A stretch of 64,000 nucleotides of DNA from Candidatus Zhuqueibacterota bacterium (GCA_049322915.1 JBMOPW010000003.1:1-64000), one strand, 5' to 3'. Numbered from the stretch's first letter, positions 304 to 20,186 are shown. Program-made: numbers and translations. The notes: generated by a model not told the origin, from the letters alone.

Positions 304-331
304 AATATAACAACACCTCGTAAAAAATCAA
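304..331 (-). promoter_or_regulatory. sigma70-like promoter firing leftwards
   Basis: Minus strand TTGATT-N16-TATATT. Confidence 0.4.
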
Positions 332-2316: not shown

Positions 2317-3057
2317 TTGAAAGTTAAAGCGATTCTGTTCGATCTGGATAATACGCTGCTGATGTTCAAGGAACTCACTTTTTTCGAAGCCTATTCAAAA
2401 AAACTTTACCTTGCCTTTCGGGACATCTTCTCCCCGGACGAATTCATCAAGCGACTTATGTTCTCCACACAGAAGATGATTGAGAATGATGGCGCGAAAA
2501 CCAATGCTGAATTCTTCATCGATCATTTCTCCAATGGCGTCAGGTTCAATCGGGAAGACCTCTGGAAACGGTTCGAGGCGTTCTATGCGGATGAATTTGA
2601 CCAGTTCTCTCCGCTGATGTCGCCTCATCCGCAGGCGCGGGAAATCATGGTCGATCTGAAAGCCAGGGGATTGAAACTTGTCATTGCGACCAATCCCATG
2701 TTTCCCATGAACGTCCAGTTGAAGCGCCTGAAATGGGCGCAGCTCGGCGATATTCAATTCGACCTCATCACAAGCGCGGATAATTTCAATTACTGCAAGC
2801 CAGGTCTGGACTATTACCGGGAAATTTGTTCGAAAATCGGAATTGCACCGGAACAATGTCTGATGGTGGGAAACGATGCTTTGAATGATATGGTCGCCGG
2901 TCAGATCGGGATGAAAACCTATCTGACCACGGACGCGGATGAAATGTCCATTGAATTGAGCCGGGACCTGGCCAAAGGCTCGAAGGTCGCCCTGCCCACG
3001 CCGCATTTCACCGGCGCGCTCCGGGACCTGAGCAGGGTGGTCGCGGGACTCGTGTGA
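2317..3057 (+). CDS. HAD-superfamily hydrolase
   Basis: FDLDNTL, IATNP, KP and MVGND..ND motifs; AGGAG RBS before TTG start. Confidence 0.9.
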   Translation: MKVKAILFDLDNTLLMFKELTFFEAYSKKLYLAFRDIFSPDEFIKRLMFSTQKMIENDGAKTNAEFFIDHFSNGVRFNREDLWKRFEAFYADEFDQFSPLMSPHPQAREIMVDLKARGLKLVIATNPMFPMNVQLKRLKWAQLGDIQFDLITSADNFNYCKPGLDYYREICSKIGIAPEQCLMVGNDALNDMVAGQIGMKTYLTTDADEMSIELSRDLAKGSKVALPTPHFTGALRDLSRVVAGLV

Positions 3058-3149
3058 GCCAAACTCATTGCGCGCATTCAGTTGCGTCACAGAGACCTGA
3101 TTCATTCCTGAGTCATCCGGCCGCTCTCCGTCACAATCACCCCTGACCG

Positions 3150-4259
3150 TCAAATTTCTTTTTCATAGATCCGATATTTTTTCACCAGATCGAATCGCAG
3201 TTGTTTCAGCGCGTTATTCATGAGCGCGTTGTCCTCCAATACCCAGTTCGCCTCCACATACGCCTTTTTCGGAGAGAGAATATCGTTCAACCGGCGGAAC
3301 ATCAAAACCGAAATGCCCTTCTTTTGATACGGTTCCAATAGGCCCAGCGCCCAGATGCGATAGCGTCGGAGCTTCTTGAGCCCTCGCATCAATTTGAAAA
3401 TTCCAAACGGAAAGAGCCGGCCATTCATGTTTTTCAAAATCGCATTGACATCCGGCACCGCCAGCAGATAGCCGATTGGCTCGCCGTCGATTTCCGCAAT
3501 GAGCACCACTTCCGGATGGATCACCTGCTTCAAATCAGCGGCAATCTGTTCAGCTTCAGATTCCTCCACCGGGTAATATCCCCAATTTCCGCCGATGGCC
3601 GCGTTGGTCAATCGAAGGATGATCCGCGCATCGTTTACCAGATTGTTCATGTCAATGGCCCGCACCGTGACCCGGTAGCGTTCGGCGATTTTATCGGTGT
3701 AGCTCAGAAATCGCTCCGGCATCTCATAACCTTTAGATATGTCACACGCATAGACGAATAGATCTTTGGCTTTTTTCATCCCGAAATGCGTCATCTGGTC
3801 GTTGTAATACGGCGGGTTGTGGGATGAGAGCACAATGGGCGGGACATCGAATCCTTCCAGAACCAGGCCGATATCCTGGGAGACAAAATTCCACTGGCCG
3901 CGCATGATCGTCATCCCTCGTTCTTTCAGCCATGTTTCGGCAGCGCCCAGCAGCAGTGAGGACGCCTCCGGATGATCGATGCATTCATAATGTCCGAATA
4001 ATCCGATGGACTGCTTCCAGTAATCGTTGGCGATGTGATTTATTGACACGGCAATGCGACCGATAATTTCGTGATTTTGATAAAGCAAAAAAAGCTGATA
4101 ATCGCAGTGCTGCAGGGCAGAATTTTTCGCGGGATTAAAAATGTTCTTTTGATCGAGGCGCAGCGGGGCAATCCAGTTTTGCGTGCGGCGGTGAAGATGG
4201 TACGGAAAGCTGATGAATTGTGTGAGCTCAGATTTTTGAGCGACCGGTTTGATGTACAT
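3150..4259 (-). CDS. YghO / bacterial ceramide synthase (bCerS)-like GNAT N-acyltransferase
   Basis: Start MYIKPV; motifs WIAPL...N, GRI, FGHYE, GLVLEGFD.PP, HNPPYY, NWGY.P, PDVN...NGRLFPFG, WVLEDN. Confidence 0.75.
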   Translation of the reverse strand: MYIKPVAQKSELTQFISFPYHLHRRTQNWIAPLRLDQKNIFNPAKNSALQHCDYQLFLLYQNHEIIGRIAVSINHIANDYWKQSIGLFGHYECIDHPEASSLLLGAAETWLKERGMTIMRGQWNFVSQDIGLVLEGFDVPPIVLSSHNPPYYNDQMTHFGMKKAKDLFVYACDISKGYEMPERFLSYTDKIAERYRVTVRAIDMNNLVNDARIILRLTNAAIGGNWGYYPVEESEAEQIAADLKQVIHPEVVLIAEIDGEPIGYLLAVPDVNAILKNMNGRLFPFGIFKLMRGLKKLRRYRIWALGLLEPYQKKGISVLMFRRLNDILSPKKAYVEANWVLEDNALMNNALKQLRFDLVKKYRIYEKEI

Positions 4260-5253
4260 GACTTTTCTCCTTGAGGTACTGCCTGTACCAGAGGACCGTT
4301 CGTTGGATGGCTTCGTCAATGGAAATGACAGGCGAATAGCCCAACATGGTTTTGATTTTAGCAATGGAAAAATGATAATCCAACCCGAAATTACGGATGC
4401 GGTATCGCGTGACTGGCGGCGCAGTGGGGATTTTGAATATTTTGTAAACCAGTTCAAAAACTGAAGCCAGTCTCTGTGCGAAGGAATTGCTCACGGACCG
4501 GCCGGGCGGCTTAATATCGAGATGGCAGCAAATTTTTTCGATGAACTGACGCCAGTTTATTTCCAGTCCATCGGAGACAATGAAGGTCTCCCGGTTGGCA
4601 TGGGGATGCGTGCCGGCGAGCCATAATGCTTCTGCGAGGTTTTCGACGTAGCTGGGACAGGTGAGTGCAACGCCCTGGCGGATGTAGGGCAGGAATCCGG
4701 TCTCCAGCGCCTGACTGAATTGGAAAAAGAATCTGAGGTCATGGGGGCCAAATACATTGGCCGGCTGGATAATGGTCAGCGGCAGGGAGTTTTGACGACA
4801 AAACTCGTTGAGCCAGGACTCGGCCAGTTTCTTCGACTCGGCGTAATGGTTGCCATCGCAATTATAGCGCTTGGCCTCGGTGGCATCCCGAAATCCGCTG
4901 AGCCCATACACCGCAGTCGAACTGATATAAACGAGCCGTTTGACGCGATTGCTCAGAGCCGCGCGCGCCACATTTTTTGAACCCTCCACATTGATGGCAA
5001 GGAATTGGGAGGCATGCCCCCAGTCGGACACGAGCGCTGCAATATGGTAAACAATGTCCTGATTTTGAAGGCTGGCCTCGAGGAATTCCTGATCCAGAAT
5101 ATCGCCGCACAACAGGCGCAGGTTCAGGTGCTTCAGTTGACCGGAGCTCTCCATGCGGCGAATGGAGCCGCTGACAGCCTGCCCCTTTTCCGTGAGTATC
5201 CGGGCGAGATTGCTGCCGATGAATCCGTTGATTCCAGTAATGAAAATGTTCAC
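4228..5253 (-). CDS. NAD-dependent epimerase/dehydratase (3-beta-HSD-like extended SDR)
   Basis: TGINGFIG, YHIAA, YAESK catalytic motif, VFGPHD. Confidence 0.9.
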   Translation of the reverse strand: MNIFITGINGFIGSNLARILTEKGQAVSGSIRRMESSGQLKHLNLRLLCGDILDQEFLEASLQNQDIVYHIAALVSDWGHASQFLAINVEGSKNVARAALSNRVKRLVYISSTAVYGLSGFRDATEAKRYNCDGNHYAESKKLAESWLNEFCRQNSLPLTIIQPANVFGPHDLRFFFQFSQALETGFLPYIRQGVALTCPSYVENLAEALWLAGTHPHANRETFIVSDGLEINWRQFIEKICCHLDIKPPGRSVSNSFAQRLASVFELVYKIFKIPTAPPVTRYRIRNFGLDYHFSIAKIKTMLGYSPVISIDEAIQRTVLWYRQYLKEKSHVHQTGRSKI

Positions 5254-5359
5254 GTTTTAGTCATTCATTTTGGAATATTTCGAACTTGTTACATAATAAA
5301 AATATAAATCGAGAGAGTCAAGCATAAAATTGCAGGCACGTCATAGATAATTGGTGGTT

Positions 5360-5398
5360 AAAAAGAATCGGCCAGAATTCCCCGGAGTTCTGGCCGAT
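5360..5398 (-). terminator. Intrinsic terminator after the secreted-protein cluster
   Basis: ATCGGCCAGAAtTCC/GGAgTTCTGGCCGAT stem followed by TCTTTTT on the minus strand. Confidence 0.65.
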
Positions 5399-5466
5399 CC
5401 CTTACGTCATCGTAACTTAATAAAAACAATTTTTCCAATGACAGGCAATAAATATTTCCGTGCAGA

Positions 5467-7359
5467 CTACTTCATTAAAATCATTTTTCGGGTTTGTGAA
5501 AATGTATTCTGGTTGGCCTCATCCGGCTCGATGGTAATTCGATAAAAATAAACGCCGGAAGCGACCTTTTGTCCCGATGAATTGCAGCCATTCCAGACTA
5601 GTGAGTACCGGCCGGTCGTTTGCTTTGTCCGGGCCAAGGCTGTTACTTCTTTTCCCTGCAAATCGAAGATTGTCAATTCCACGTTTGCCGGAAGCGGAAG
5701 CTCATATCGGATCGTCGTTTCCGGATTAAAGGGATTGGGATAGTTTTGCGACAGGGAAAACGACGTGGGCGCAACTGAGTTGAATGTCGTTTCCTGATTG
5801 GCCATAAAAACCTGGATGCGCCCGTCGTTCAGGTTCAATGCCTCAATTTTTAGAGTTGACTGGTTATTATTTTTTGGATCAACTACATCAAACGTCAACC
5901 GAATCAATTCATCCGATATTTTTGACGGGCGCGAACCGGCAATGGCAATCGTCAAGACGCCGTCTGCGGTCTGGTATTCCGATAAAAGATCTTCAGAGTT
6001 TACCGGGAGGTTCAGTCCGCGGAACTCCAATATCTCGTCATCGAAAACTATTTTTATTTCTGCTGAAAGAATTTCGTTGGCTTCGGAGAAACAGATCGGG
6101 ATCGTGATTTGCTTCTGTTCGAAGCGCGATATTTCTCCCCATTGAACGGTTGCCGTGCCGATGGTTTCGCGCGGTAGCGAAGCCAGGAGTTGACCCGGCG
6201 GCGACCAGTTGCCGGAAACATCGCCGAGGATAAGCCCCACAAAATTCTGATTCACCTGATCCGAATTCAAAGGCGAATAGAGCAAATGATCCGGCGCAGT
6301 GCTCCAATTGTTCAAATCCATGTGAATAGTTGCCGGGACGAATTTCCAGTCCTCGCCGGTGGGAAAATCCGATACAAGCCCGACCACATATCGCAAAATA
6401 TAGGACGCATCGTAGGCAGTAACCCCGCCATTCGACGTCACGTCAGCCGCGATCATTTGATAGGGCGTCAACGAAATCAGGCTGGCCGCATATTGCAGAA
6501 TCAACGCGGCATCATAAGCGCCAATGCCGTTTCCGAGATCACCGCTTTTTTCCGGAGTCAACTGGTAATTTCCTGCCGGAATATCACTGAAAGAAAACAG
6601 CCCATCCACATTGCTCTGGGTCTGGAATTCGTTCAGATTTAACGTTGCATTCGCTACCGGCTGGCTGTTCGAATAATACGCGATCCCTCCGGAAACGCTG
6701 TAACCACCCGACACTGTGTATGAACCATCCTGGGGCAGCGCGGCCGGTTCGCCTTCATTGAAAAGCACTTCTGCGAAATGGATGGGTAACACCGAATTAT
6801 CAGGAGCCGCAGCGGCGACCTGGTATTGCAGGTTCACTAAAATTCCGCTCCCGGAAAGCGGAATGGTTCCTGCCGCAACGATTTTCAATTTCGTGCCTTC
6901 AATATTTGTCAGAATTGTTGACCACTGGCCGAGCAGTGCACCGGTGTATGAAATACTGAGAGGCAATAAAGACGATTCAGTTTCCACGGTGATTGACAGC
7001 GCCGTGATATTTTTATTGGTCACATCTTCGACATAAAGTGGCACAGCAATCGTAACGCCGGCAGACCCGGAAAGATGCGGCGCGCTTATTATAATTCCGG
7101 AAGCAACATCACCGATGTAACCGCTGGAAACACGGTACGTCGGACTCGATGCGGATCCCACCGGCGACGATTGCCCGATGGCATCCTCCACCGAATAGGT
7201 TGTGGATTGCGCCTGTCCGCCGGCCATGCTAATTGCCGAACGGTGAAGTTTATATTTCTCATCGGAAATTGCTGCCTCTGGAAACATCGCCGCGACCATC
7301 AGAAGGGCGACTATTCCAACAAGCAGTCCGATCCTGAATTTGTATTTGTAAAATTTCAT
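5467..7359 (-). CDS. Secreted protein: Ser/Gly-rich N-module, cohesin, Ig-like domain, dockerin, cohesin, T9SS CTD
   Basis: AGGAGA RBS before ATG 7359; signal peptide; AYDAALILQY...ADVTSNGGVTAYDASYIL dockerin; GDVSGNW; QNYPNPFNP CTD. Confidence 0.8.
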   Translation of the reverse strand: MKFYKYKFRIGLLVGIVALLMVAAMFPEAAISDEKYKLHRSAISMAGGQAQSTTYSVEDAIGQSSPVGSASSPTYRVSSGYIGDVASGIIISAPHLSGSAGVTIAVPLYVEDVTNKNITALSITVETESSLLPLSISYTGALLGQWSTILTNIEGTKLKIVAAGTIPLSGSGILVNLQYQVAAAAPDNSVLPIHFAEVLFNEGEPAALPQDGSYTVSGGYSVSGGIAYYSNSQPVANATLNLNEFQTQSNVDGLFSFSDIPAGNYQLTPEKSGDLGNGIGAYDAALILQYAASLISLTPYQMIAADVTSNGGVTAYDASYILRYVVGLVSDFPTGEDWKFVPATIHMDLNNWSTAPDHLLYSPLNSDQVNQNFVGLILGDVSGNWSPPGQLLASLPRETIGTATVQWGEISRFEQKQITIPICFSEANEILSAEIKIVFDDEILEFRGLNLPVNSEDLLSEYQTADGVLTIAIAGSRPSKISDELIRLTFDVVDPKNNNQSTLKIEALNLNDGRIQVFMANQETTFNSVAPTSFSLSQNYPNPFNPETTIRYELPLPANVELTIFDLQGKEVTALARTKQTTGRYSLVWNGCNSSGQKVASGVYFYRITIEPDEANQNTFSQTRKMILMK

Positions 7360-7455
7360 GGATATCTCCTGTTCGTTCAAATGCGAATAGTATAAAAAAA
7401 TGGTTTCCAGTTATTGGCTTAGTATACTATTTCATAAATTTTTGGAGGTTTCATC

Positions 7456-7529
7456 TGTCATGCCGGTCCCGCATTTGCGGGATTATCGGGCATCCACTGA
7501 ATTCCCTCCAAAAACACGCTGGAATGACG
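7456..7529. repeat. REP-like palindrome of the GTCAT...GGAATGAC type
   Basis: gtcatgccgg-tcccgc-attt-gcggga-...-ggaatgac. Confidence 0.55.
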
Positions 7530-7587
7530 ATCAATGAAAACTCATTCTCAACATTGAAACCCTATATAGATTTGTAAAACGCTGTAC

Positions 7588-9702
7588 TTAGTTCTGCTTT
7601 TTTAAATTGACTTTGGTCTGGGAGTCGATGCCCAACGATTCAGCAACGCCAAGTTCGACCGGGTGTAAATATTTCCCGCGTTCTTCGCCCTGCTTCTCCA
7701 CTTCGACCCGGGTGCGATGGACTTCGGCATACGCGTCTTTCCTGACGCCGGTGACCTGCCAGGATACTTTCATTCCGGCAGAACCGCCGGCAATGCTGAA
7801 TTGGTTGTTGCTTATTTCTTCCGCCACATACAGATTGGGACCCGGCGCGCCAATGGCTGTGAGCTGATAGCGGAAGTCTTTATTCAATGCATCGAACCAT
7901 TCCGGCAACTCGACTCGGGCCTGGCCGCTGGCATCCAGAATTACATTGCCGTTGTAAATATTCATCATGTCCGGTGAAATGACGTTGGAGTGCTGCAGGT
8001 ACTTATTCCCCGGATCGAGCGGATGATCCATTTTTACGGAAGAGCTGGCCGGGGTGAGATTGCCGGTGACGTGCACATCCCCGGAAAAGTAGCCGGCGTA
8101 AATATTGCCTTTGCCGTAAACCCCACTATTGTATGAGCCAAGAACGCCCCAGTGTGTTCCTTCGTCATCATAATTTCCCTGTACGCCCCTGCTGTGGCCT
8201 GCAATGAATCCGGAGGGTCCGTCACTGTTTTTTCCGTACACTCCCTGATCCTCATCGGCGATCTGTCCATAATTGCCGCCGTAATGAGAACCGTAAACGC
8301 CAACCGCATGTGAGCCTAAATAGCCGGTATTGTCATTCGCGTTTTTGCCCAGCACGCTAACCAATGCAGCCCCAAGATAGCCATAGTTGCCATTGGTGAA
8401 GCGGCCAAACACACCGTGCTGCTCTGTGGCAACTTCACCATAGTTGCCATTGCCATGCTCGCCATGAATGGCTGTATTTTCACTATTGACATACAATTGA
8501 GTCGAAGGCGCGAGCGTACCGATTCCCACTTTGCCATCATCTTTTACAACGAACTTTTGTAATTGGTTGGCCGCATTGTAATGAACGGCAAAATCCCCGC
8601 CATAACTTTGGAGATAAAGATTTGCCGGGTTGCCGTTGTTCCGAACCATGATTTCATTGTTATCCAAAACCATATTGATTTGGGACGCATCGCCGGAAAT
8701 CAGATTTCCACCCTCGGTAAGCGTAACATCGACACCGCCGTTAAGGTGTAATCGTGTTAAAGGATCAGATATGCCGACTCCAATATTTCCGTTGTCTTTG
8801 ATAATGATTTTTTGCGCTTCATTCGCTGCGTCTTTATGGATGGAAATATCACCGCCATATCCCTGCAGATATAGATGGTCGGGAGCGCCATTTCTGCGCA
8901 CCATAATTTCGTTGTTGTCAAAAGCCATATTCAGATGATCGGTCGCCCCGGCGATTAAAAAGCCGCCATCATTGAGCGTAACATCTGAGCCGCCGGATAG
9001 ATGGAGCTTTGAAACGGGATGAGGTGCGATTCCGATCCCGACATTGCCACTGATTGCCAAACCGTCTGTGCCATCGATTGTCACAGCTCCGGCATCCGCT
9101 GTTATTGTTCTGCCGGCGCCGGCGCCGCCCTGGTCATAGGCCTGGTCCAGGGTATTTCCGCCCGAGCCTCCGCCTGTCGCGGAAATAGTGATTTTGTGGT
9201 TTGTATTGTCCGGGGTGAGTGTAACATTGGCCCCGGCCTCCAGATCGAGAATACCGCCCAATCCCGGGATGACGCCATTCATTTGCTGAACAAACCCGGA
9301 TGCAGATTTACCGCCGAGAGTATCCGCGTTACTCGCATGAAATGAACGAAAACTATAACCAACGCTGACCAGCTTTTTTCGCGGCGTCATTTCCGGATCG
9401 GTTCCAACCTGCATTGTGATGTATCGGTTCTCTTCATCAAAAGCTGTCAACGGAATTTCCTGAACCGAACCCAGGAGCGCCGTAAAAAAACCGTCGTTGA
9501 TGGAAACGGTCTGAGTTTCCGACCATAGCTCATCGCTGCCGGTCTCCGAACCATAAATAATGAATTTGATTTCGAAGTTTCCGTTTAGTGGCCCGACATC
9601 GTCGGAAATTTTTCCCTGGTAATTGATGAGTTGAGGGATTTGAGCGTTTGTGTTCACTACGAAGAGCAACAGCACTGCACAGATGAGGATTAGTTTTTTC
9701 AT
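7588..9702 (-). CDS. Secreted fibre/adhesin-like protein with QIPQLINYQG N-domain, GNVGIG repeats and conserved DHPLDP C-terminal domain
   Basis: Signal peptide; tandem ~87-aa repeats (LHL.GG.DVTL..GG...DNNEIMVR.NG.P..LYLQ.YGGD); GVYG repeats; C-terminal DHPLDP.NKYL.HS...SPDMMNIYNG. Confidence 0.7.
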   Translation of the reverse strand: MKKLILICAVLLLFVVNTNAQIPQLINYQGKISDDVGPLNGNFEIKFIIYGSETGSDELWSETQTVSINDGFFTALLGSVQEIPLTAFDEENRYITMQVGTDPEMTPRKKLVSVGYSFRSFHASNADTLGGKSASGFVQQMNGVIPGLGGILDLEAGANVTLTPDNTNHKITISATGGGSGGNTLDQAYDQGGAGAGRTITADAGAVTIDGTDGLAISGNVGIGIAPHPVSKLHLSGGSDVTLNDGGFLIAGATDHLNMAFDNNEIMVRRNGAPDHLYLQGYGGDISIHKDAANEAQKIIIKDNGNIGVGISDPLTRLHLNGGVDVTLTEGGNLISGDASQINMVLDNNEIMVRNNGNPANLYLQSYGGDFAVHYNAANQLQKFVVKDDGKVGIGTLAPSTQLYVNSENTAIHGEHGNGNYGEVATEQHGVFGRFTNGNYGYLGAALVSVLGKNANDNTGYLGSHAVGVYGSHYGGNYGQIADEDQGVYGKNSDGPSGFIAGHSRGVQGNYDDEGTHWGVLGSYNSGVYGKGNIYAGYFSGDVHVTGNLTPASSSVKMDHPLDPGNKYLQHSNVISPDMMNIYNGNVILDASGQARVELPEWFDALNKDFRYQLTAIGAPGPNLYVAEEISNNQFSIAGGSAGMKVSWQVTGVRKDAYAEVHRTRVEVEKQGEERGKYLHPVELGVAESLGIDSQTKVNLKKQN

Positions 9703-9789
9703 TGTAACGTACTCCTTTGGTTAAGGGTTTGATTGAATTTTGCTAACTGTATTATATTTTTTGGCATATAGAATCCAAAACCTGTCCTT

Positions 9790-11535
9790 TCATTTCACCA
9801 TTATCATTTTCTTCATTTCAAAATGGTCCCCTGCTTTTATTGTGAACAGGTAAACCCCGCTGCTCACGCGTTGTCCTGATTCGTCCTTTCCATCCCAGGT
9901 GACTGAATGGAATCCCTGCTGCTGGCGTTCCGACACCAGGGTCGCCACTTTTTTCCCGAGAAGATCGAACACAGCCACTTCGACTTTGCCGTCCCCAGGT
10001 ATGGAATATCGAATTTCTGTGCTGGGATTGAACGGGTTGGGATAATTCTGATGCACGACAAAATCTTTCGGCTGAATTGCCTTCCGCTCCAATGGCACCG
10101 CGCTGAACAAGCCGCTGTAGCACACTACCGTTGTATCCGGTTTAATCGTTTTGACAAAAACAGAATCGGAAACAAACTTTGGAGTTCTGTAAGGGCCAAA
10201 CGCCTTCAGGCTAAAAAGCAGGCTGGCTGCGTTGAATGGAATATTTTCGTAGCAGCAATAATCTAATTCATTGAAAGAAGCGAGCAAAATATCCTTGCCT
10301 CCGAAGCCGGCGCTCTCTGTCGTACCGATTGCGATATAACCGTCCGGATAGCCGGGAATTTGGCTGCGGACAACATCATTGGCCATATCAGTTTCTACCA
10401 TATCCAGGATGGGATGCAAGCGCCGGGCACTGATATAGTTACCTGTTGAATCGAACTTCACCAGAAGCATGTCCTGTTTGGGCGGATTGACGGACATGGT
10501 TTCGGTTAGCCCGGCAACGATCAATTCATCATTTTCATTGCGGATGATTGAATGTCCCTCATCGATTTCGGTGGAATCGAATACGACCGGCGAGGTCAAA
10601 ATTGTATTCCAGTTGAATGACATAAGCGATCGTCTAACAGAGAGCACCAACAGGTCAATTTTGGATGAAAGGCTGAGGCTCCTCGTACCGCCGGTGATTA
10701 CATAGGAATCCTGGTTGGGCGCATCAACAATATCGTATCCAATATCAGCCTGCAAAGGTGCGCCGGACGCATCGACAGCGCCAATTTCCCGCGTGGCCTG
10801 GATAATGCCGTTTCCGTTTATTTTGATGAGGAGAATATTTCGTGATTTCAAATTTCCGGTCGTGCCCAAAACGACATAATTTCGTTCGGAATCTTTGACA
10901 ATCGAATAGCCGACGTCCATTGTATCCGGCTTGCCTATGATGTAACCCCATTTAACGCTACCAACAGTATCGATGGCAGCGACGAGCAAATCGCAGGCCT
11001 CGTCCTGGGCTTTTGTGGTTCCGACTAAAATGTAATCGTGAAAATGGCCTTCAATAACCCGCATCACATGATCGTTTTTATGGGCGCCATCAATGTCAAA
11101 ACGTCGGGCAAATTTTAACTGACCCTTTTTATCTATTCGGGCGAAAAGGGCGTCCGTATCCAGAGCATTGGGATCCGGATTTACGGTCGATCCGCAGACA
11201 ATGTAATTTTTATGTGAATCCTGTTTAATGTCATACGCGTGGTCGTCTTTCGTACTTCCAATGACCTGCGCCCATCGGAAATAAAGATAAGGATATACAC
11301 AATCCACGATATAATGAGCGATAAAGGCGTCTGTTCCGCCCAGGCCTTCGCTATCCGTCGAGCCGATTACGGTCAGTGTGCTGTCGTTATTGTCCAGATA
11401 ACTTGCAAACCCGGTTTCCTGGCCGGCGCCGCCGATAGTGTAAACATATTCCTGGGAAATAGCCAATGTAGCGCTCAGGAAAAGGCACAAAGGAATCAGG
11501 GCGAATATGGTTTTTAAATGGATCATTCTTTTCAT
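9790..11535 (-). CDS. T9SS-secreted beta-propeller protein
   Basis: Repeated G.T.S.G.G..D.LL.K.D..G blades; QNYPNPFNP CTD. Confidence 0.8.
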   Translation of the reverse strand: MKRMIHLKTIFALIPLCLFLSATLAISQEYVYTIGGAGQETGFASYLDNNDSTLTVIGSTDSEGLGGTDAFIAHYIVDCVYPYLYFRWAQVIGSTKDDHAYDIKQDSHKNYIVCGSTVNPDPNALDTDALFARIDKKGQLKFARRFDIDGAHKNDHVMRVIEGHFHDYILVGTTKAQDEACDLLVAAIDTVGSVKWGYIIGKPDTMDVGYSIVKDSERNYVVLGTTGNLKSRNILLIKINGNGIIQATREIGAVDASGAPLQADIGYDIVDAPNQDSYVITGGTRSLSLSSKIDLLVLSVRRSLMSFNWNTILTSPVVFDSTEIDEGHSIIRNENDELIVAGLTETMSVNPPKQDMLLVKFDSTGNYISARRLHPILDMVETDMANDVVRSQIPGYPDGYIAIGTTESAGFGGKDILLASFNELDYCCYENIPFNAASLLFSLKAFGPYRTPKFVSDSVFVKTIKPDTTVVCYSGLFSAVPLERKAIQPKDFVVHQNYPNPFNPSTEIRYSIPGDGKVEVAVFDLLGKKVATLVSERQQQGFHSVTWDGKDESGQRVSSGVYLFTIKAGDHFEMKKMIMVK

Positions 11536-11696
11536 GGTAAGCCTCCGCTTCAGTAATGAGATTAATAGTGAAACTCGATTTGAATTTCATGTAAATTTTT
11601 TCTGATGTTTTTTTCCAAGTCCTTCCAGCAATTTAACCAACGATGATAGATAAAATTTAATAATTCCATTCCCTGTTTCAGATTACAAAGTATAAT

Positions 11697-12521
11697 TCAA
11701 CGAGCGCAACGGAATCCAATAACCAGATGACTATTCTTGGGAATTTCACCACTGCGATCCGCGCAACGTAGGTTCCCAGAGGCACTAATCCAGCAGCCGC
11801 CACGCATTACACGATAATCGCCTCTTTCCGGTCCGACAGGATTTTCATAAGGGCTGATCGTGTAATAGCCCGCGTCGTACCAGTCTGCACACCACTCATA
11901 AACATTGCCGCCCATATCATAGAGACCGTAGCCGTTCGCCGTGTATTTGCCCACCGGGGTGCTATCGCCAACATTATTATTATAATTTGCCATTGTGTTG
12001 TTGATTGAATCGCCCCAGGGATATTCCTGTCTTTCTAAACCGCCGCGGGCGGCATATTCCCACTCGGCCTCGGTGGGCAATCGTTTACCGGCCCATTCAG
12101 CATACACTGCTGCGCCATACCATGTTATCAAACCCACCGGGTGATTTTCATAACCGGTCTCGGGGACATATTTGCCATCTAGCTTCCTGATTCGGCAATT
12201 ATTATCTGTAATATTGAGCCATGTTGCACCACCTTCAGATTGATTTCCCTTTTCATTCAGAAACTGACAATACTGTGTACTGGTCACCTCGTATTTATCC
12301 ATGTAGAAGTCATCGAGGTATACTTTATGAACCGGTTCTTCATCGCTTCCACCATTAGTACTTCCCATCATGAATTCCTTCCCGGCTTTGACAAGCACCA
12401 TGGAATCAACTTCTTCGTCCGGTTTTGTCGGTGAATCGTCCGAGCCGCATGAGAAGAATAGCAAAATAATCAGAATTGCCATAAGCGTTACAACGGAATT
12501 GTGTTTTTTGAATAGTAACAT
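11697..12521 (-). CDS. FGE-sulfatase (SUMF1-like) domain lipoprotein
   Basis: Lipobox FFSC; FMMGS, RLPTEAEWEYAARGG, GLYDMGGNVYEW, GFRC. Confidence 0.9.
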   Translation of the reverse strand: MLLFKKHNSVVTLMAILIILLFFSCGSDDSPTKPDEEVDSMVLVKAGKEFMMGSTNGGSDEEPVHKVYLDDFYMDKYEVTSTQYCQFLNEKGNQSEGGATWLNITDNNCRIRKLDGKYVPETGYENHPVGLITWYGAAVYAEWAGKRLPTEAEWEYAARGGLERQEYPWGDSINNTMANYNNNVGDSTPVGKYTANGYGLYDMGGNVYEWCADWYDAGYYTISPYENPVGPERGDYRVMRGGCWISASGNLRCADRSGEIPKNSHLVIGFRCAR

Positions 12522-12647
12522 TCTTGCTCCTCCTTATTAAAAAATAGCCTTGGAATTAATGAAATTTTATTTCCCGAATCTTGTAATAAAATTACGTGGA
12601 TTAAGTTTTATCCAATTTAAAAAGATTCCGGAAAATGTCTATCTCAT

Positions 12648-12676
12648 TTGTCGCAACATATAACAATCTTGTCGCA
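12648..12676 (-). promoter_or_regulatory. Putative AraC/HTCS operator: direct repeat TGCGACAA-N13-TGCGACAA
   Basis: TTGTCGCA at 12648-12655 and 12669-12676 (21-bp period), between the HTCS gene and the downstream genes. Confidence 0.6.
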
Positions 12677-12743
12677 TGTGGAGGAAACTGGGAGAACTAT
12701 GAGGGTTGAAAAGGGATTTAATGGTGAACTACTGTGGAAAGAG

Positions 12744-15700
12744 TTACTTCTTTGAAGAGTTTTTATACTCCGACGGCAACACGCCAAACTGTTCCCGAAA
12801 TCGATTGCTAAAATAGGAGATATTGCTGAACCCAACTTCATAAGCGATTTCAGTGATATTGCCTGATTTTTGCTCTATCAGTCGCGCCGCCCGCCTCAAC
12901 CGCATGAGACGGATGAACTGATTAGGGGCCTGATCTGTGAGTGCCACCAGCTTGCGATGAAGCTGGCTTCGGCTTAATCCAATTTTTTTGGCGAGCATGG
13001 GTGTATCGAATGAGGAGTTCGAGAGGTGATTTTCAACAATTTCCATTAATTTCGTGAGCCATTTCTCATCGGCTGAAGTGACCGTAATATCCTTTGGTTT
13101 CAAGGTCAGTTCACGGGAAAATCGCTCACGAAGTTTTTTTCTTTGGTCGATTAAATTTTTCATTCGCACTAACAGTTCCGCGGCATTGAACGGTTTAACG
13201 AGATAATCATCCGCGCCTTTATCAAGCCCGTCCAGTTTGTTTTCCATGGCTGCTTTTGCAGTGAGCAGAATCAACGGGATGTGGCTGGTTCGTTCGTCGC
13301 GCCTGATTTTTTCGCAGAATTCGAATCCGTCCATGTTAGGCATCATCACATCGCTGACAATCAAATCGGGAATTGATTGAATGGCTTTGTTCAAACCGAT
13401 TTCCCCGTCTTCGGCTTCGAGGATGCGGTATTGATTATCGAGATAGCTTCGGATGTACCAGATAACATCGCGGTTGTCTTCCACAATCAGAACGAGCGGC
13501 AACTCGCTGGATTTTTTAGCAGGAATTTTCTGATGCATTTCGGGCGAATCCGGTATTTGCGTCACTTCCATATTTTCTTCGAAGGCGTGAGTAGCAGCAG
13601 GCAAAACATCCTGTCCCTTTGATAATTCCTTCGTGAACGGCAACAGGACGGAAAATGTGGACCCCTTGCCCGGCTCGCTTTTCACTTCAATGACGCCGCT
13701 GTGTAATTCAACAAGTTCTTTAGTGAGGGCTAGGCCAATTCCAGTCCCTTCGAATTTTCTGTTGGATGAATTATCCGCCTGATAAAATCGATCGAAAATT
13801 TTTCCCAACTGGTCCGGGGCAATGCCGATGCCGGTGTCGGCGACATCAATCTTCAGGCAGTTGTTATTTTGAACCAGTTTCGGTTTTGTGGTTTTAAATT
13901 TTGAAGACATCTCCTCATTCAATTCCGTGACAGAAATATGCACAGAAATGGCTCCATTTTTTTCGGTGAATTTGAACGCGTTCGAAAGAAGGTTCGACAT
14001 AATTTTTTCGAGTTTATCTTTGTCAAAATTGAATTCAATGTCTTCAAGCTGGCAATTGAATTGCAAACTTATCTTTTTTCGCTCCGCCAGCGACATAAAC
14101 GAAAAAACAATTCCCCGCAGAAAATTCACCACATTGCCCTGTTTAATTTGAAGGGACATTTCCTCGGCTTCCAGCTTCGAAAGATCCAGCAATTGATTGA
14201 TGAGTTGCAGGAGCCGTTTGCCGTTCCGTTTCATCATCAAATAAATTTCCCTCGGATCACCGTCGAATTCTTTATTGATGAGTTGATTGAGCGGACCCAG
14301 AATAAGGGTGAGCGGCGTTCTAAATTCATGAGAAATATTGGCGAAGAAATTATTCTTCATCCGATCCATTTCCAGCAATTGCTGCGCTTCGAAACGCTTC
14401 ATCTGCAATTCATTCCTGAGGCTTATTCTTCTGACTTGAAATTTGTAAACTCCGAAAATCAGGAGAGCAATTCCAATCGCAAATAATGAGTATGCCCAAA
14501 TCGTTCTGTACCAGGGCGGTATGATTCTAATTCGAATTTGGGTTTCTTCAACAAGGCTCACATCTTTTGCGTCGAACGCTTTGACACGAAAACTATAGTC
14601 CCCGGGAGAAAGGTGCGTGAAATGAGCCTGCCGGTAATTGCCGGTGAAAATCCAATCGTCGTGGAAGCCTTCCATTTTATACGCATACTGAATATCTGCA
14701 TGTCGGGGAAAATCCAGCGCCATAAAATCGAATGAAAATATTTTCTGATCACTGTTCAATATCAGTAATTTTTTCTCGAAGATAATTGTATCCAACATGG
14801 CCGGTACACCAAACAAATTGAATTGATTGAAAACAACCCGGGATTTCTTACCACCTCCAAACCCACTGTCAGGGTGAAACGACACAAAGCCCCTGTCTCC
14901 GCCGAAATATATTGTTCCGTTCCGACTTTTAAAACATGCATTGCTGTTGAAATTCAAAGCAAGCGAGTGATCTTGATTGAGGTACAATTCGTGATCCTTT
15001 GTAATGTAATTGTACCTCATAATTCTATCCGCGCCGGTTAGCCACAAAAAGGTTGGATAACTCTCTGCAATATTTCGGATAAAATCATGCTTCAATTCCC
15101 TGTATTTGATGACCATTCCCACGTACGGCTCCCTTTCATTCAATCCGCCGCCCAGGGTGCCCATCCATAAATGATCGCGCCCATCCAGAAGCAAAACAGT
15201 GATTGAATCGCATTCCAGGCTCAGGTGGTTTGCGCTATCGTGCTTGTAGTGGACAATTTCGGGAACGCGGCGTGGTTCATTCCCGTACACAGGTTTCGCG
15301 GATAATTCATTCAATCCCGCATCGAGAGTGCCTATCCAGATTCTGTCGTAGGTTCCTTCAACGATGGATGTTATTTTGTTACTGCTCAGGCCATCCCCTT
15401 TTCCGGGATGAGCCGAAGTGTGAGCGATAAATTTTCCGGATTTATCAAAAATTTTTACCCCCTTTTCTTTCAGGACTATCCAAAAATAGTTTTTCGAATC
15501 TCTGAAAATGTGGGTGATGGTATCGAATTCTGAAATTTCCGGGGAGAATTTCGTTCGATATTTTTGCCCGAATTTTCTATGAAAACAATCGAATTCATAG
15601 ATGCCATTTCCTTCGGTTCCCAATAACAAAGAATGACCATCCAATAAAAACATGGCAGTGAGTTTGTTAGACGCCGAACGCCCCGCATCATTCAGATATT

Positions 15701-17171
15701 GAATGTATGCATTCTTCGCCTCATCAAACAGGAAAAGGCCGTGATCGCGGGTAGCAATCCAGATATTGCCCCAATTGTCCTCTGAAAGGCTTTGCACATT
15801 GGCGTCAATTTCTTCCGTATTATTCTTAGACTTAATTTTGTGAAATTGGAATAACGCGGCCGGGACACCTTGTTTTTCACCTGGGTTATCCGGGATCATT
15901 TTCACTTTATCTTCAATTAAGTCTGAAATATTTTTTCCAGCGCGTACCAAGCTGTTTGTTGAAGGGACAGACAGGTTGTAAATATAGGCCGATCCAGCAT
16001 TTTTCGAGACGTCGTCATCGCCGTTGGCGCCGACGAGCATATAATTTCCATAAACAGAAATGTTGGCACCGAAATAATCCAATTTTTGGCCGTCGTAAGG
16101 TATTATTTTTGTGCGTTCCAGCCAGTGGTTTCCCTCATGTTCGAAAATATAAACAGATCCGCATTCTTTTTCATTGTCGTCCAGACCCACACCAATGATG
16201 GCGTTGTTTTCCATGAGCTCAACCTTAAGTCCGAATCGATCGCCTGCATTGCCGTCTTTGGCAACGATTTTAGCCTCCTGCTTCCACTTCTTTCCGGCTT
16301 TCCGGAAAATATAGGCCGCGCCAGACCTGTCGCCATTGTCATCATCAGAGTTAGCGCCGACCAGCAAACAATTCCCCCGAAGCGACACATCAGAGCCAAA
16401 AGAATCGAAAATTTCAATGTCATGCGAGTAAATTTTCTGCTGTTCAATCCATTGCGATCCTTCTCTTTTATACATATATACTGCGCCGGGAATTCTTTCT
16501 TTATCAAATCCCTTGGGAGCGCCGACAGCTAATTGGTCGCCATCCAAATCCAGACCCCAGCCAAAATGAAATTTAGCGAGCTTGTCATGCGGGATTAATT
16601 TGGCATGTTGCAGCCAGCCGGTTTGTTCCCGTTTGAAAATATACACCGCGCCTGTTAGTTTTCGAGTTTCATTGTCGTACACGGCGCCAATAGCGATATA
16701 CTCACCTTCGATATCAACGGACATACCAAACATGGCTCCGGGATGACCATCTATAGGCGCGATTTTTTGTCGCTCGATCCACTGTTCTCCGACTCTCTCA
16801 AAAATGTAAGCCGCCCCGGCATATTTACCATTCTCATTGTCTCCTTCAGCCGTGACAACAATAAAATCGCCATCGATGGCAACCCGGCCAAAGCATTGCT
16901 GCTCCCGTTTATCATGCGGTTGAAGGCGCGTCTGCTGAACCCACGAATCACCCTGTTTTTTGAAAACATAGGCCACGCCCTCGGAATTGTTGGGCACGCG
17001 GGAACCAATCACCGCATAATCGCCGCAAATGTCTACATAGGTCCCGAAGTAGTCGCCGGGTTTTCCATCCAAGGCTGTTATTTTAGTGGCAATTTGTGAA
17101 AAAGCAGGTTTGATGAATAGTGCGAAGGAGATAATGAGAAGAATTTCCCGAATATTCTGAATTGTACCCAT
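12744..17171 (-). CDS. Hybrid two-component sensor/regulator: FG-GAP propeller, Reg_prop propeller, Y_Y_Y, TM, HisKA, HATPase, REC, AraC HTH
   Basis: About 7 'FG..V.I.GD...VGA...G.AYIF' repeats; ANISHEFRTPLT; NAFKFT; DTGIGI; DVMMP; IAYEVGF..ISYFS..F. Confidence 0.92.
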   Translation of the reverse strand: MGTIQNIREILLIISFALFIKPAFSQIATKITALDGKPGDYFGTYVDICGDYAVIGSRVPNNSEGVAYVFKKQGDSWVQQTRLQPHDKREQQCFGRVAIDGDFIVVTAEGDNENGKYAGAAYIFERVGEQWIERQKIAPIDGHPGAMFGMSVDIEGEYIAIGAVYDNETRKLTGAVYIFKREQTGWLQHAKLIPHDKLAKFHFGWGLDLDGDQLAVGAPKGFDKERIPGAVYMYKREGSQWIEQQKIYSHDIEIFDSFGSDVSLRGNCLLVGANSDDDNGDRSGAAYIFRKAGKKWKQEAKIVAKDGNAGDRFGLKVELMENNAIIGVGLDDNEKECGSVYIFEHEGNHWLERTKIIPYDGQKLDYFGANISVYGNYMLVGANGDDDVSKNAGSAYIYNLSVPSTNSLVRAGKNISDLIEDKVKMIPDNPGEKQGVPAALFQFHKIKSKNNTEEIDANVQSLSEDNWGNIWIATRDHGLFLFDEAKNAYIQYLNDAGRSASNKLTAMFLLDGHSLLLGTEGNGIYEFDCFHRKFGQKYRTKFSPEISEFDTITHIFRDSKNYFWIVLKEKGVKIFDKSGKFIAHTSAHPGKGDGLSSNKITSIVEGTYDRIWIGTLDAGLNELSAKPVYGNEPRRVPEIVHYKHDSANHLSLECDSITVLLLDGRDHLWMGTLGGGLNEREPYVGMVIKYRELKHDFIRNIAESYPTFLWLTGADRIMRYNYITKDHELYLNQDHSLALNFNSNACFKSRNGTIYFGGDRGFVSFHPDSGFGGGKKSRVVFNQFNLFGVPAMLDTIIFEKKLLILNSDQKIFSFDFMALDFPRHADIQYAYKMEGFHDDWIFTGNYRQAHFTHLSPGDYSFRVKAFDAKDVSLVEETQIRIRIIPPWYRTIWAYSLFAIGIALLIFGVYKFQVRRISLRNELQMKRFEAQQLLEMDRMKNNFFANISHEFRTPLTLILGPLNQLINKEFDGDPREIYLMMKRNGKRLLQLINQLLDLSKLEAEEMSLQIKQGNVVNFLRGIVFSFMSLAERKKISLQFNCQLEDIEFNFDKDKLEKIMSNLLSNAFKFTEKNGAISVHISVTELNEEMSSKFKTTKPKLVQNNNCLKIDVADTGIGIAPDQLGKIFDRFYQADNSSNRKFEGTGIGLALTKELVELHSGVIEVKSEPGKGSTFSVLLPFTKELSKGQDVLPAATHAFEENMEVTQIPDSPEMHQKIPAKKSSELPLVLIVEDNRDVIWYIRSYLDNQYRILEAEDGEIGLNKAIQSIPDLIVSDVMMPNMDGFEFCEKIRRDERTSHIPLILLTAKAAMENKLDGLDKGADDYLVKPFNAAELLVRMKNLIDQRKKLRERFSRELTLKPKDITVTSADEKWLTKLMEIVENHLSNSSFDTPMLAKKIGLSRSQLHRKLVALTDQAPNQFIRLMRLRRAARLIEQKSGNITEIAYEVGFSNISYFSNRFREQFGVLPSEYKNSSKK

Positions 17172-17370
17172 AACGAAAACCAGTTCAGTTTGAGGCCAAT
17201 GTCCAATATACTTCGAGCAGGGAGTGCCAGTAGGAAGAATCGTTCGTAAATAGTCCTCCCGAAAGAGGGGCTAATCCTATGCCTAAAATCTTTCGGGAGG
17301 AAATAATGTTAATATTCAAGAAAAATAGTGTGTGTCAAAAGACAGTATTTCGAAAACTGCCAGTAACTTA

Positions 17371-19548
17371 TTATTTCAGGAATAACATTTTTTTCATTTG
17401 ATAAAAATCACCAGCTTTGAGGGTGAACAAGTAAACGCCGCTGGTAACTTTTTCATTGGAAGCGTTTCTGCCATCCCAGGTTACTGCATAACGGCCGGGC
17501 TGCTGAAATTCCGAGACTAGGGTCGTCACTTTTTCACCCAACAAATTGAAAATAGCAATTTCGGAATGACACGCTTTGGAAAGGGAATAACGAATCTCTG
17601 TCCTCGGATTGAACGGATTGGGATAATTCTGATTGAGTTCAAAACCCTCGATGGTTGTTTCAGAATTTGTGTATACGACGGCGCTCGGTATTTTAGGCCC
17701 GAAGCGGATGATGATGCCGCCGTAACCGCAGACGAAAACTTTATCATCGTCGGTGACAGCGATGGATTTCATATCTTTGTCAGTAAGTCCGGTAGCAACC
17801 GGCGCCCACATGACGCCAGCGTCCGTTGTCTCGAAAATGGAACCATCTTCGCCGGCAATCCAGCCTGTTGTCTCGCTTATGAAACCAACGCCGCTCAAAT
17901 CAAGACTGGTCGGACTGTTCTTTTTCGCCCAGGTTGCGCCGGTATCGCCGGAGAAGAGAATCGCGCCATCATTGCCAACGGCCCAGCCGTGAGTCGCATC
18001 CAGGAAAAAGAGGTCCGAAATTTTTGTTTCGCCTGGCAGATCGTGCGCAGCTGTTTTCCAATTCAATCCACCGTCCGTGGTGTACAGAAATGAGCTTCTG
18101 TCCCCGGCAATGACCAGTTTATTCTGGTCAATCCCATCGATGTCGTACAGGGTTTGCGTTGAAATTCCGGTCCCCTGAATTGTCCAGTCCGTGCCGCCAT
18201 TTTCAGATTTCAGAATGGTGCCGGACGCGCCGACAATCCAGACCTGATTTTCATCAAATGCATAAACCGCCCGCAGCCATTGCGTCGTGACACCAGCGCC
18301 GGGCAGAAACCAATTCAATCCGCCGTCTGTTGTTTTGGCAATGAAACCACCGGACCCGGCAACCCAGCCGACATTGGAATTCGCATAATCGATGCCCCAG
18401 AGCTGGAGGGAAATGGTATTGTCGGCCACAACGAAATCGGATGCCCAGTTCGCGCCACCGTCTGTGGTCAGGGTCATTGAACTGGCGTATCCAATGCTCA
18501 TGATGCGATCGTTGTCAATGGCGCCGATTTTGTACTGGTATTGGGCGTTGACCTGGCTCAGCGACTGCCAGGTTGCGCCGAAATCTTCTGAACCGTACAT
18601 GGTTCCGGCGCCTCCCATAATCCAGATCCGGTCGCCAACAATTCGCGCCGCTTCATTGGAATTGCCACTGATCCGGGTCAGAGGCGTCCATTCATTGCCG
18701 TCGGTCGTTGTGAACACCCAGCCTTTATGCCCGACAGCCACACCTTTGGTCGGAGAGGTGAAATCAATAGCCCACATATTTTCCATAATCCGGTCGCTAT
18801 TCTCCCAGAGCGTCCAGGTATTGCCGCCATCGGTTGATTTGGCGAAGACAGATTTCAACGCCAGCACCTCAAAACCGTCGCCGACCGCCCACGCGGTGTT
18901 CTGATCGGCCATGGCAACCGCGTTAAAATCTTTGCCGCCGATATTCGGGATGGTCGAAGCTGTCTGCCAGGTCGTTCCATTGGTCGTGTAATAAATCGTC
19001 TGGGCTTCGCCCACGGCAATGCCATGGGTGGCATCGAACATATCAATACCGTAAAAATCACCGGTGGCGCCGGTGGCAATGACTGACCAGTCCACGCCAT
19101 TGATTGTATAAAGCAAGGTTCCGCTGCCGGCAGCGGCATAGGCGACCGTAGCGCTGACAGCACAAACGCCTTTCACGGTGGCCGTGGTCAGTCCCGCGCC
19201 CTGGATTTCCCAGTTCTCACCGCCATCGGATGTGTGAATGATGGTTCCATTGACGCCAACGACCCATCCATTCAATGCATCGAAGAAAGAGACGTCGGAA
19301 AAGGTCGCCGGCGTTACGTTCGTATCGCTCTGGTCGACCCAGTCGGCCCAGCCATTGGTCGTGTGAAGTATCATTCCATAGCCGCCACTGCTACCAATGG
19401 CCCAGCCGGTTTGACCGTCCGGCAACATGCTCAGGCCGTTAATTTCGCCGTCAATATCCGGTTTCGCGGCAAGCGACCATTCCCAGTCTTGTGCAGAAGA
19501 GATGGTCACCAACGCTAACACAAAAAATATGGTTATGATGTATCGCAT
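17371..19548 (-). CDS. YCF48/BNR-repeat beta-propeller protein with T9SS CTD
   Basis: Many 'F.D...GW.VG..G.I..T.DGG..W' repeats; CTD. Confidence 0.88.
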   Translation of the reverse strand: MRYIITIFFVLALVTISSAQDWEWSLAAKPDIDGEINGLSMLPDGQTGWAIGSSGGYGMILHTTNGWADWVDQSDTNVTPATFSDVSFFDALNGWVVGVNGTIIHTSDGGENWEIQGAGLTTATVKGVCAVSATVAYAAAGSGTLLYTINGVDWSVIATGATGDFYGIDMFDATHGIAVGEAQTIYYTTNGTTWQTASTIPNIGGKDFNAVAMADQNTAWAVGDGFEVLALKSVFAKSTDGGNTWTLWENSDRIMENMWAIDFTSPTKGVAVGHKGWVFTTTDGNEWTPLTRISGNSNEAARIVGDRIWIMGGAGTMYGSEDFGATWQSLSQVNAQYQYKIGAIDNDRIMSIGYASSMTLTTDGGANWASDFVVADNTISLQLWGIDYANSNVGWVAGSGGFIAKTTDGGLNWFLPGAGVTTQWLRAVYAFDENQVWIVGASGTILKSENGGTDWTIQGTGISTQTLYDIDGIDQNKLVIAGDRSSFLYTTDGGLNWKTAAHDLPGETKISDLFFLDATHGWAVGNDGAILFSGDTGATWAKKNSPTSLDLSGVGFISETTGWIAGEDGSIFETTDAGVMWAPVATGLTDKDMKSIAVTDDDKVFVCGYGGIIIRFGPKIPSAVVYTNSETTIEGFELNQNYPNPFNPRTEIRYSLSKACHSEIAIFNLLGEKVTTLVSEFQQPGRYAVTWDGRNASNEKVTSGVYLFTLKAGDFYQMKKMLFLK

Positions 19549-19732
19549 GGGTACTCCTCAAATTTCAGATGGAAGTCAAAAACGTTGTTCGAACTGCGCG
19601 GGTTCCGGCATGTTTCACTCATTTCACTTGATGTTAGCTCGCTGGATAAGTTGGATTGAACAGATTGGCGCAATCAAGGAATGGAGGCCATGTTTGACCC
19701 GCATGGCAGTTTTTTTATCCCAAATAATGCAA

Positions 19733-20053: not shown

Positions 20054-20139
20054 TAATTTTTTTTCAAATGCATTATCCGGTTTTATTGCCTGATTGAAAA
20101 AGGCGCTCTGAACCGGCAGAGGCCCGCCTGAGCGCCTGA

Positions 20140-20174
20140 AAAAATTAAGGGAGGCGCTTGATGGCAGCCTCCCT
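20140..20174 (-). terminator. Probable intrinsic terminator
   Basis: AGGGAGGC...GCCTCCCT stem followed by TAATTTTTT on the minus strand. Confidence 0.55.
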
Positions 20175-20186
20175 GAGAACTTGAAA

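Follow-up and report, generated by a model that had tools for sequence, protein, structure and literature searches.

What does a hybrid two-component sensor (HTCS) control when the genes that follow it encode secreted, non-enzymatic proteins, and how would a phage-like fibre devoid of an export tag be held at the cell surface by the products of its neighbours? Both questions are raised by positions 5467 to 17171 of a stretch of 64,000 nucleotides (JBMOPW010000003.1:1-64000, hereafter the window) from the genome GCA_049322915.1 of a Candidatus Zhuqueibacterota bacterium. All five genes of this locus lie on the minus strand and encode, from upstream to downstream, the HTCS, a lipoprotein with the fold of formylglycine-generating enzymes (FGE), a secreted repeat protein, the fibre, and a multidomain protein (hereafter the partner) ending in a type IX secretion system (T9SS) C-terminal domain (CTD). 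A sequence-only reading had correctly delimited these five co-oriented genes and proposed that an FG-GAP sensor controls a T9SS surface-fibre and cohesin-dockerin gene set. Our preferred reading, to which we give a probability of about 0.5 for the whole chain, is that of a cassette for inducible display of the fibre, the base of which would be docked by the tagged partner. Sequence comparison drew attention to two features overlooked in the sequence-only reading, namely that the fibre has no export tag and that the product of the last gene begins with a conserved N-terminal peptide predicted to dock it. What can be put to the test is the docking peptide and its regulation, whereas FG-GAP and cohesin proved to be the least conserved parts.

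The fibre gene (7588..9702, minus strand) codes for a MAT-like phage-fibre protein of 704 aa, composed of a signal peptide, a beta-sandwich base (residues 21-113), a mosaic shaft and a conserved C-terminal domain (residues 536-704). No CTD, lipobox or S74 match was found in it, and no Pfam family. The base domain was predicted as a beta-sandwich with pLDDT above 90, the shaft of the monomer model being of low confidence; three base domains modelled together reached a pLDDT of 94, though only the partner was scored in that model. This base was present in 119 of the 120 homologues listed, the best of 3502 hits, and KSB1 was the commonest taxon among the named ones (6/16); the host is therefore probably KSB1, which would place it outside Bacteroidota. 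According to the available text of Caulton et al. 2024 (PMC10769870), the MAT fibres of Bdellovibrio bacteriovorus likewise combine a signal peptide, a beta-rich domain and a mosaic phage-like shaft with a variable tip, and sister fibres in another genome of the phylum (G018, from a different family) include the S74 type. Yet the present fibre belongs to a different phylum, its tip is a non-S74 domain and its match to Bdello_MAT_N (NF053851) remained below cut-off (E 5e-7, 29.7 versus 60 bits), as did those of 48 out of 49 base domains. Its C-terminal domain had no named family in the Atlas and was also encountered in archaea (L154, Nitrososphaeraceae archaeon) and phages (Atlas clusters). The best fold matches were with tail proteins of phages (E 1e-11) and with the fibre of a pyocin (E 7e-4), which could be taken as the signature of a prophage or tailocin tail-fibre gene stranded without cellular role. 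Such an interpretation is extremely improbable for a protein that bears a signal peptide, whose base domain is common to thousands of chromosomal homologues and which is linked to secreted partners across phyla, in a window where no phage genes were noticed among the open reading frames (ORFs).

The partner gene (ORF 5467-7380, minus strand; 5467..7359 from the ATG at 7359) encodes 630 aa organized as signal peptide, docking peptide, cohesin, carboxypeptidase-regulatory-like domain, dockerin-like segment, second cohesin and T9SS type A CTD. The docking peptide (7096..7266, minus strand), delimited by profile and complex model, is a glycine-rich beta motif of about 55 residues lying directly after the signal peptide. 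Linkage between peptide and fibre was observed at several levels. Among the 79 metagenome fibre loci on which its profile was grown, the peptide occurred in 22 and adjoined the fibre gene in 21; in 79 independent GTDB loci it was found in 30, next to the fibre in 29, and these loci span FCB lineages, Chloroflexi, Planctomycetes and Verrucomicrobia. Within the phylum, the base domain was detected in 77/80 peptide-positive versus 30/87 peptide-negative genomes (counted by hand, related genomes not being independent), and a fibre match was located within 8 kb of at least 98 of the 137 peptide matches, with 150 of the 251 fibre matches listed. In the genome of the window itself, the profile matched three of 19,076 ORFs, all beside fibre genes, two of them being seeds of the profile. 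Contigs C15 and C41 of this genome hold two similar loci (1-4400, minus strand), each with a tandem pair of fibres and, behind it, a probable peptide partner truncated where the contig stops. The peptide family amounts to 11,956 representatives at E <=0.001. It has no named family in the Atlas (best 0.83, a lead only), and no description of the fibre/peptide pair was found in the literature, supplements and most subscription journals being beyond our coverage.

A complex of three base domains and one peptide was modelled with a score of 0.92, the best of three controls scoring 0.02. Of 157 solved complexes, 116 attained the mark adopted for such scores, compared with 2 of 215 mismatched pairs; these counts are only roughly valid for this job. 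A single peptide (residues 2-53) contacted the three base copies on one and the same face (residues 6-15 and 75-96); at least 91% of contacts agreed between runs, and the partner displayed a pLDDT of 86. Recall of a solved complex is unlikely because the PDB, searched by sequence, held no relative of either the base domain or the peptide, and because, among known folds, the base domain was matched at best with Z 7.4 (rmsd 3.4 over 84 residues). As modelled, the peptide very probably binds the fibre base, and the fibre would trimerise after Sec export and clamp the peptide of the partner. According to the available text of PMC10769870, the binder of the MAT N-terminal domain on the cell surface awaits identification; here, the neighbouring peptide-CTD protein is a predicted candidate.

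What follows the peptide was far less constant. CTD alone was the usual continuation, cohesin or dockerin accompanied it in two of the 30 partners, and FG-GAP repeats at times. Judged from these architectures, the stretch separating peptide from tag carries interchangeable cargo, of which the cohesin/dockerin block is one form. On a broader scale (53 of the 150 listed representatives were scanned past the peptide), fusions to T9SS CTD, dockerin-like, PEP-CTERM, choice-of-anchor U and Chloroflexi-type YLPL tails were recorded, depending on the lineage. The CTDs of the partner and of the secreted repeat protein exceeded the TIGR04183 cut-off of 23 bits (36.7 and 37.4 bits, respectively) and both proteins have a signal peptide, as in T9SS type A cargo (PMC9251779, available text). 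The genome (6.25 Mb, 96% complete) contains SprA, 30 PorV and two PorU in tandem, all over cut-off. Contrary to such cargo, the fibre has no CTD and is predicted to rely on the tagged partner, whose CTD would take it through SprA/PorV or at least tie it to the surface via PorU. We consider that the partner probably serves as surface anchor.

Binding need not imply co-transport by the T9SS, however, because the same peptide carries other sorting tails in phyla without this system. Peptide and fibre might thus be co-regulated and bound to each other with the peptide acting as a socket or chaperone, the fibre leaving by another exit route or being released in soluble or vesicle-borne form; the length of the fibre may also fit poorly with passage through SprA. 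We judge this version unlikely, as the cassette holds no other exporter gene, PorU sortases are present, and SprA, a 36-strand barrel, is said to transport folded proteins in the available part of PMC9251779. Export of the fibre by the tag of its partner would represent a tag-less trimer hitch-hiking through the T9SS, which was not found described in the literature covered. Likewise, no paper on type IX secretion or on cohesin-dockerin proteins in KSB1 was found, and the KSB1 genome paper PMC9012183, in the part available, is silent on T9SS, cohesin, pili and adhesion. A PorV-expanded, motor-less T9SS is possible in this genome, with its 30 PorV and no GldN/GldM match (controls silent).

If the fibre is displayed in this way, its display would be governed by the HTCS. 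The first gene (12744..17171, minus strand; Pfam) encodes 1475 aa in which all Pfam domains were over cut-off: a signal peptide, a 7-blade FG-GAP_2 propeller (residues ~25-402; seven repeats, 300 bits), a Reg_prop propeller, Y_Y_Y and one transmembrane segment (~891-909), followed by HisKA, HATPase, receiver and AraC helix-turn-helix (HTH) domains, with phospho-acceptors H948 and D1274 present. It shares the one-chain organization of the Bacteroides thetaiotaomicron HTCSs (propeller/Y_Y_Y sensor, kinase, receiver and AraC HTH; available text of Ravcheev et al. 2013, PMC3878776, and of PMC13292587), from which it differs by its first propeller and by its targets, secreted non-enzymatic proteins instead of SusC/D and carbohydrate-active enzymes (CAZymes). 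The canonical pair of Reg_prop propellers with Y_Y_Y is missing, the first propeller being FG-GAP_2. Residues 444-1469 aligned with residues 374-1395 of the canonical HTCS of G018 at 44%, and the alignment started at 444; FG-GAP therefore replaces the first of two sensor propellers. A variant HTCS sensor is also known in BT1754 (PMC3878776, available text).

The FG-GAP/HTCS fusion is rare in the sequences compared. Within the best 120 of 1949 hits, the architecture was seen, besides the query, in a single relative with 86% identity, the cluster of which holds one further member; among 150 matches listed from 40 related genomes, only the query spanned both FG-GAP and HTCS parts. No FG-GAP hybrid two-component sensor was found described in the literature that we covered. 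The FG-GAP propeller is a lineage-specific swap that probably alters the ligand sensed. As possible donors we noted partners made of peptide, seven FG-GAP repeats and CTD (L221:11691-13424, L223:1404-3140, L215:1408-3144, L222:9511-10857), which come from three other genera of the same order. They were the best FG-GAP matches among the 40 relatives, and a quick tree (46 rows; careful search unfinished) joined partners and sensor with an SH-aLRT of 84 on a very long branch; unrelated proteins were equally similar to the sensor FG-GAP (42% versus 41%).

Two TGCGACA copies (12676-12670 and 12655-12649; candidate operator 12649..12676, minus strand) lie 21 bp apart, 155 bases ahead of the FGE start, and correspond to the direct repeat of 21-bp period already reported after the HTCS gene. 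A motif-free scan fails to set it apart (9/14 matches at period 21, periods 27 and 31 giving 10) and Tandem Repeats Finder did not report it. The leave-one-out profile built from five other HTCS loci, applied to the same region, gave 13.6 bits at period 21, 5.6 at the next period and 0/300 shuffles; none of the four remaining intergenic regions of the cassette contained a site by this profile. Direct repeats predicted for Bacteroides HTCSs average 21 bp apart (PMC3878776, available text), a likeness that here concerns the sequence layout only. The layout extends to the promoter. In eight HTCS-downstream regions from four genomes, chosen for showing a repeat, the two half-sites were followed after 7 nt by a weak -35 box and, 16-17 nt on, by a TAnnnT box, found at that spacing in 7/8 regions versus 8% of background. 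At this locus a weak -35 box (TAGACA) stands 7 nt past the second half-site and TAAATT 16 nt further, a predicted and likely activator-dependent promoter (12614..12641, minus strand) supported by the box spacing common to those regions. We are highly confident, on these sequence grounds, that the repeat is an HTCS binding site, and the activator site appears to abut its promoter; a ligand would activate the HTCS, which would then bind the repeat. A further repeat match, near another FGE gene on contig C34, was discarded as it falls inside a coding region. Generic promoter and terminator scans remained at chance level (22 versus 21.1 and 18 versus 17.0, respectively).

How far does this control extend? 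In the proposed mechanism, one transcript would run from about 12610 to a terminator behind the partner gene and include FGE through partner. The existence of a terminator at the end of the set had been proposed and agrees with our results: a likely intrinsic terminator (5362..5403, minus strand; -27 kcal/mol, z -4.6, 0/200 shuffles) precedes a U run. On the other side, a strong hairpin (17254..17301, minus strand; z -4.5, 0/200 shuffles) between the HTCS gene and a YCF48-repeat gene is the likely upstream boundary. Co-orientation alone cannot bound the set because the genes on both flanks (17371-23921 and 3150-5253) are on the minus strand as well; the strong hairpins at about 17254-17301 and 5362-5403 do bracket the five genes. 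A single transcript is supported by the occurrence of one operator in the cassette and by the fact that no hairpin of terminator strength, as judged by folding against shuffles, was found in the gaps from FGE to propeller to fibre genes. We lean towards HTCS control that reaches the fibre gene.

The HTCS might nevertheless control the first one or two genes only (FGE, perhaps the propeller gene), fibre and partner then forming an independent module in a hot spot of secreted genes. Such a hot spot is easily conceived in a genome with 185-217 CTD-bearing ORFs, where T9SS-tagged neighbours carry little weight because they are common, and most fibre/peptide loci are devoid of HTCS, FGE or propeller. 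HTCS operators elsewhere stand ahead of unrelated genes, and the intergenic distances of the cassette (87-228 bp) would accommodate such a split. Conservation in G018 argues against it: that genome, which belongs to another family of the same taxonomic order, repeats the arrangement, with HTCS, repeat, FGE and propeller coming first, then a pair of fibres, a C10 peptidase, one peptide partner, another pair of fibres and, last, a peptide-CTD partner. Its genes nearly abut, propeller and first fibre ORFs being 17 bp apart. Moreover, seven other HTCS loci share the operator-promoter layout, three of which precede a fibre gene or a fibre/partner pair. The repeat lies directly before the fibre gene in G006, and a weak site (4/300 shuffles) precedes a peptide/fibre pair in G018:C36. 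A fibre was found within 8 kb downstream of 5/67 listed HTCSs versus 0.2 expected (3/62 without the own genome), the 67 being those of 150 listed matches that reach the AraC end. With this enrichment and no internal hairpin of terminator strength, we hold restriction of control to the first genes to be rather unlikely. The earlier proposal that the HTCS drives a surface apparatus is retained in a more precise form, a secreted surface-fibre cassette being probable from operator layout, G018 order, HTCS-fibre enrichment and the G006 repeat.

Several observations weigh against the fibre-display reading. The full order of HTCS, repeat, FGE, propeller, fibre and partner was recovered in one of 166 other genomes of the phylum (G018), G001 of the same genus had no fibre, peptide or propeller match, and nine neighbourhoods of FGE relatives contained no fibre, peptide or full HTCS. 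The gaps of 161 bp (FGE/propeller), 87 bp (propeller/fibre) and 228 bp (fibre/partner) are large enough for separate promoters, and a REP-like element separates the fibre and partner genes. Two of the five HTCSs of the genome have a repeat before CTD genes of unrelated kinds, and a third lacks a repeat; the operator is thus not specific to fibre genes, and its motif is common to paralogues. No peptide was detectable in 57/79 metagenome and 49/79 GTDB fibre loci, which either use other anchors or contain peptides missed by the profile. Finally, the search for the ring and motor of the T9SS covered GldN and GldM and found neither in the genome, no control genome having matched in it.

Comparison of gene neighbourhoods, suggested in the sequence-only reading, further gave no support to the idea that FG-GAP sensing and cohesin-dockerin scaffolding define the system. 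The one syntenic cassette, in G018, has neither: its sensor is of the ordinary Reg_prop type and its last partner displays no cohesin or dockerin match. The 158 fibre loci contained no FG-GAP HTCS, propeller orthologue or match to the first cohesin, and a single FGE protein. The propeller domain occurred in 5/167 genomes of the phylum, own genome included, and two other propeller homologues were in unrelated contexts. For the FG-GAP HTCS, the FGE protein and the fibre alike, close relatives come from a contig recorded as 38,170 bp long, probably the same in all three cases; neither the propeller nor the partner cluster had such a member. In the genomes compared, the HTCS-fibre link recurs and the five-gene set is rare and mosaic; the combination of an FG-GAP sensor with a cohesin-dockerin set under its control is a local variant and does not represent the conserved system.

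A cellulosomal scaffoldin is an array of cohesins that binds dockerin-bearing enzymes, usually with a carbohydrate-binding module (CBM). The partner resembles it by two cohesin stretches, with cohesin domains over cut-off, and a dockerin-like segment within a secreted protein; it differs in having cohesin and dockerin in one chain, and neither a CBM nor an enzyme was recognised in the locus. A cellulosome-like or cryptic glycan-utilisation locus, with a glycan as the signal sensed by the HTCS and the cohesin protein as a scaffold for dockerin enzymes, would be consistent with these domains, with about ten cohesin-like ORFs in the genome and with the fact that known HTCSs mostly control glycan loci (PMC3878776, available text). 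It is nonetheless very unlikely. The dockerin match was below the Pfam cut-off (19.9 versus 22.9 bits), the G018 cassette has no cohesin, cohesin is found in two of 30 peptide partners, and the partner's block also ends several unrelated CTD proteins of the genome. Annotation with Pfam and NCBIfam models revealed no CAZyme domain in any of the five proteins; glycoside hydrolase and SusC/D domains in particular were not found, in agreement with the previous report. The locus is not a polysaccharide-utilisation locus, and its genes are not ordinary CAZymes. Absence of SusC/D at the locus itself says little, because the whole genome yielded neither a SusD match nor a SusC over cut-off (a control genome being positive).

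The two remaining proteins would be accessory binding proteins. The FGE-fold (C-type-lectin-like) lipoprotein (11697..12521, minus strand; 274 aa; Pfam, NCBIfam) has the lipobox FFSC and is missing, in the aligned loop, both catalytic cysteines (Cx4C, C-terminal loop) of formylglycine-generating enzymes; it is likely a binding protein by this criterion. With 124.7 bits against a cut-off of 350 for the GldK/PorK equivalog, it is not GldK/PorK either. Its orthologue occupies the same position in G018 and is 79% identical. A genome search revealed no template-repeat copy of its 3' end and no sign of a diversity-generating retroelement. The secreted repeat protein (9790..11535, minus strand; 581 aa), likely a beta-propeller, has an orthologue with 64% identity in G018. 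It displayed a weak SBBP-type match, no enzyme family and no PDB relative, the CTD being the sole family recognised by Pfam and NCBIfam. From its domain content, the locus is neither a polysaccharide-utilisation locus, a cellulosome, an FGE enzyme nor GldK.

A broader proposal emerges from these comparisons, which we advance tentatively and with the odds slightly against it. The 55-residue peptide may be a universal three-fold fibre socket, one chain donating strands to all three MAT-type base subunits, mounted on the sorting tail of any lineage; it would supply the missing anchor and export route across phyla and would here be switched by a sensor with a newly acquired FG-GAP propeller. It might perhaps include the tip of the Pam pilus, since the peptide family weakly matches positions ~26-81 of PamT (NF058579), the predicted tip pilin of this pilus in the candidate phyla radiation (CPR). 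Matches scoring 20-34 bits, where the cut-off is 240, were obtained for 8/23 aligned peptides (best E 8e-6) and 13/53 scanned relatives; the window's own peptide had none, nor did the PamT model match the genome (controls silent). A tail-fibre-like gene is reported to lie consistently near the pam operon (PMC13278184, available text). Yet neither pilins nor chaperones were recognised here and the likeness is a lead only. If true, the socket proposal would cover some 12,000 representative proteins. A short, synthesizable peptide is here a candidate answer to the binder question of the MAT paper in a related fibre family, given the confident 3:1 model and the strong linkage. As to regulation, a conserved operator-promoter layout before surface-protein genes of the phylum would extend HTCS biology past glycan use, to which a rare sensor with a swapped propeller is a further addition; the displayed fibre may have an adhesive role.

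Other features of the locus and of related genomes can be mentioned. The palindromic REP-like element in the fibre/partner gap (7441..7540, strand unassigned), recognised from genome copies and fold, is dispersed: five more full or partial copies with 85-97% identity exist in the genome, its fold z is -1.55, and it is not specific to the locus. Three DNA sequencing runs were compared with the window and provided no independent synteny: a contig from one run, possibly the source of the window itself, spans 3000-19772 without differences, a second study providing short pieces only. Directly upstream of the cassette, two YCF48/BNR-repeat CTD proteins are encoded on the minus strand (17371-19548 and 20187-23921), the longer of which ends in the carboxypeptidase-like/dockerin/cohesin/CTD block of the partner. 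Between them (~19790-19930), the summed depth of contigs in run X1 is very high, which suggests a multi-copy element. Elsewhere in the genome, contig C14 (289914-309235, plus strand) carries six co-oriented cohesin/dockerin CTD genes, one more gene and a PorV-like gene. A second HTCS cassette lies on contig C36 of the same genome (150004-158009, minus strand); it is composed of HTCS, 21-bp repeat, a 141-aa secreted protein, an aldo-keto-reductase-like fragment, a 183-aa peptide-CTD partner and a 475-aa fibre. The C10-family peptidase that follows a fibre in G018:C23 (L181:14582-16126, Pfam) has a similar-looking counterpart, by eye, in a 506-aa ORF after a fibre in G018:C36 (L250:9885-11405). 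In other lineages, Reg_prop sensor kinases or HTCSs were also noted a few genes from fibres in L019, L023, L102, L116, L150 and L257, one example being an HTCS divergent from an array of fibre-like genes in a Saprospiraceae genome.

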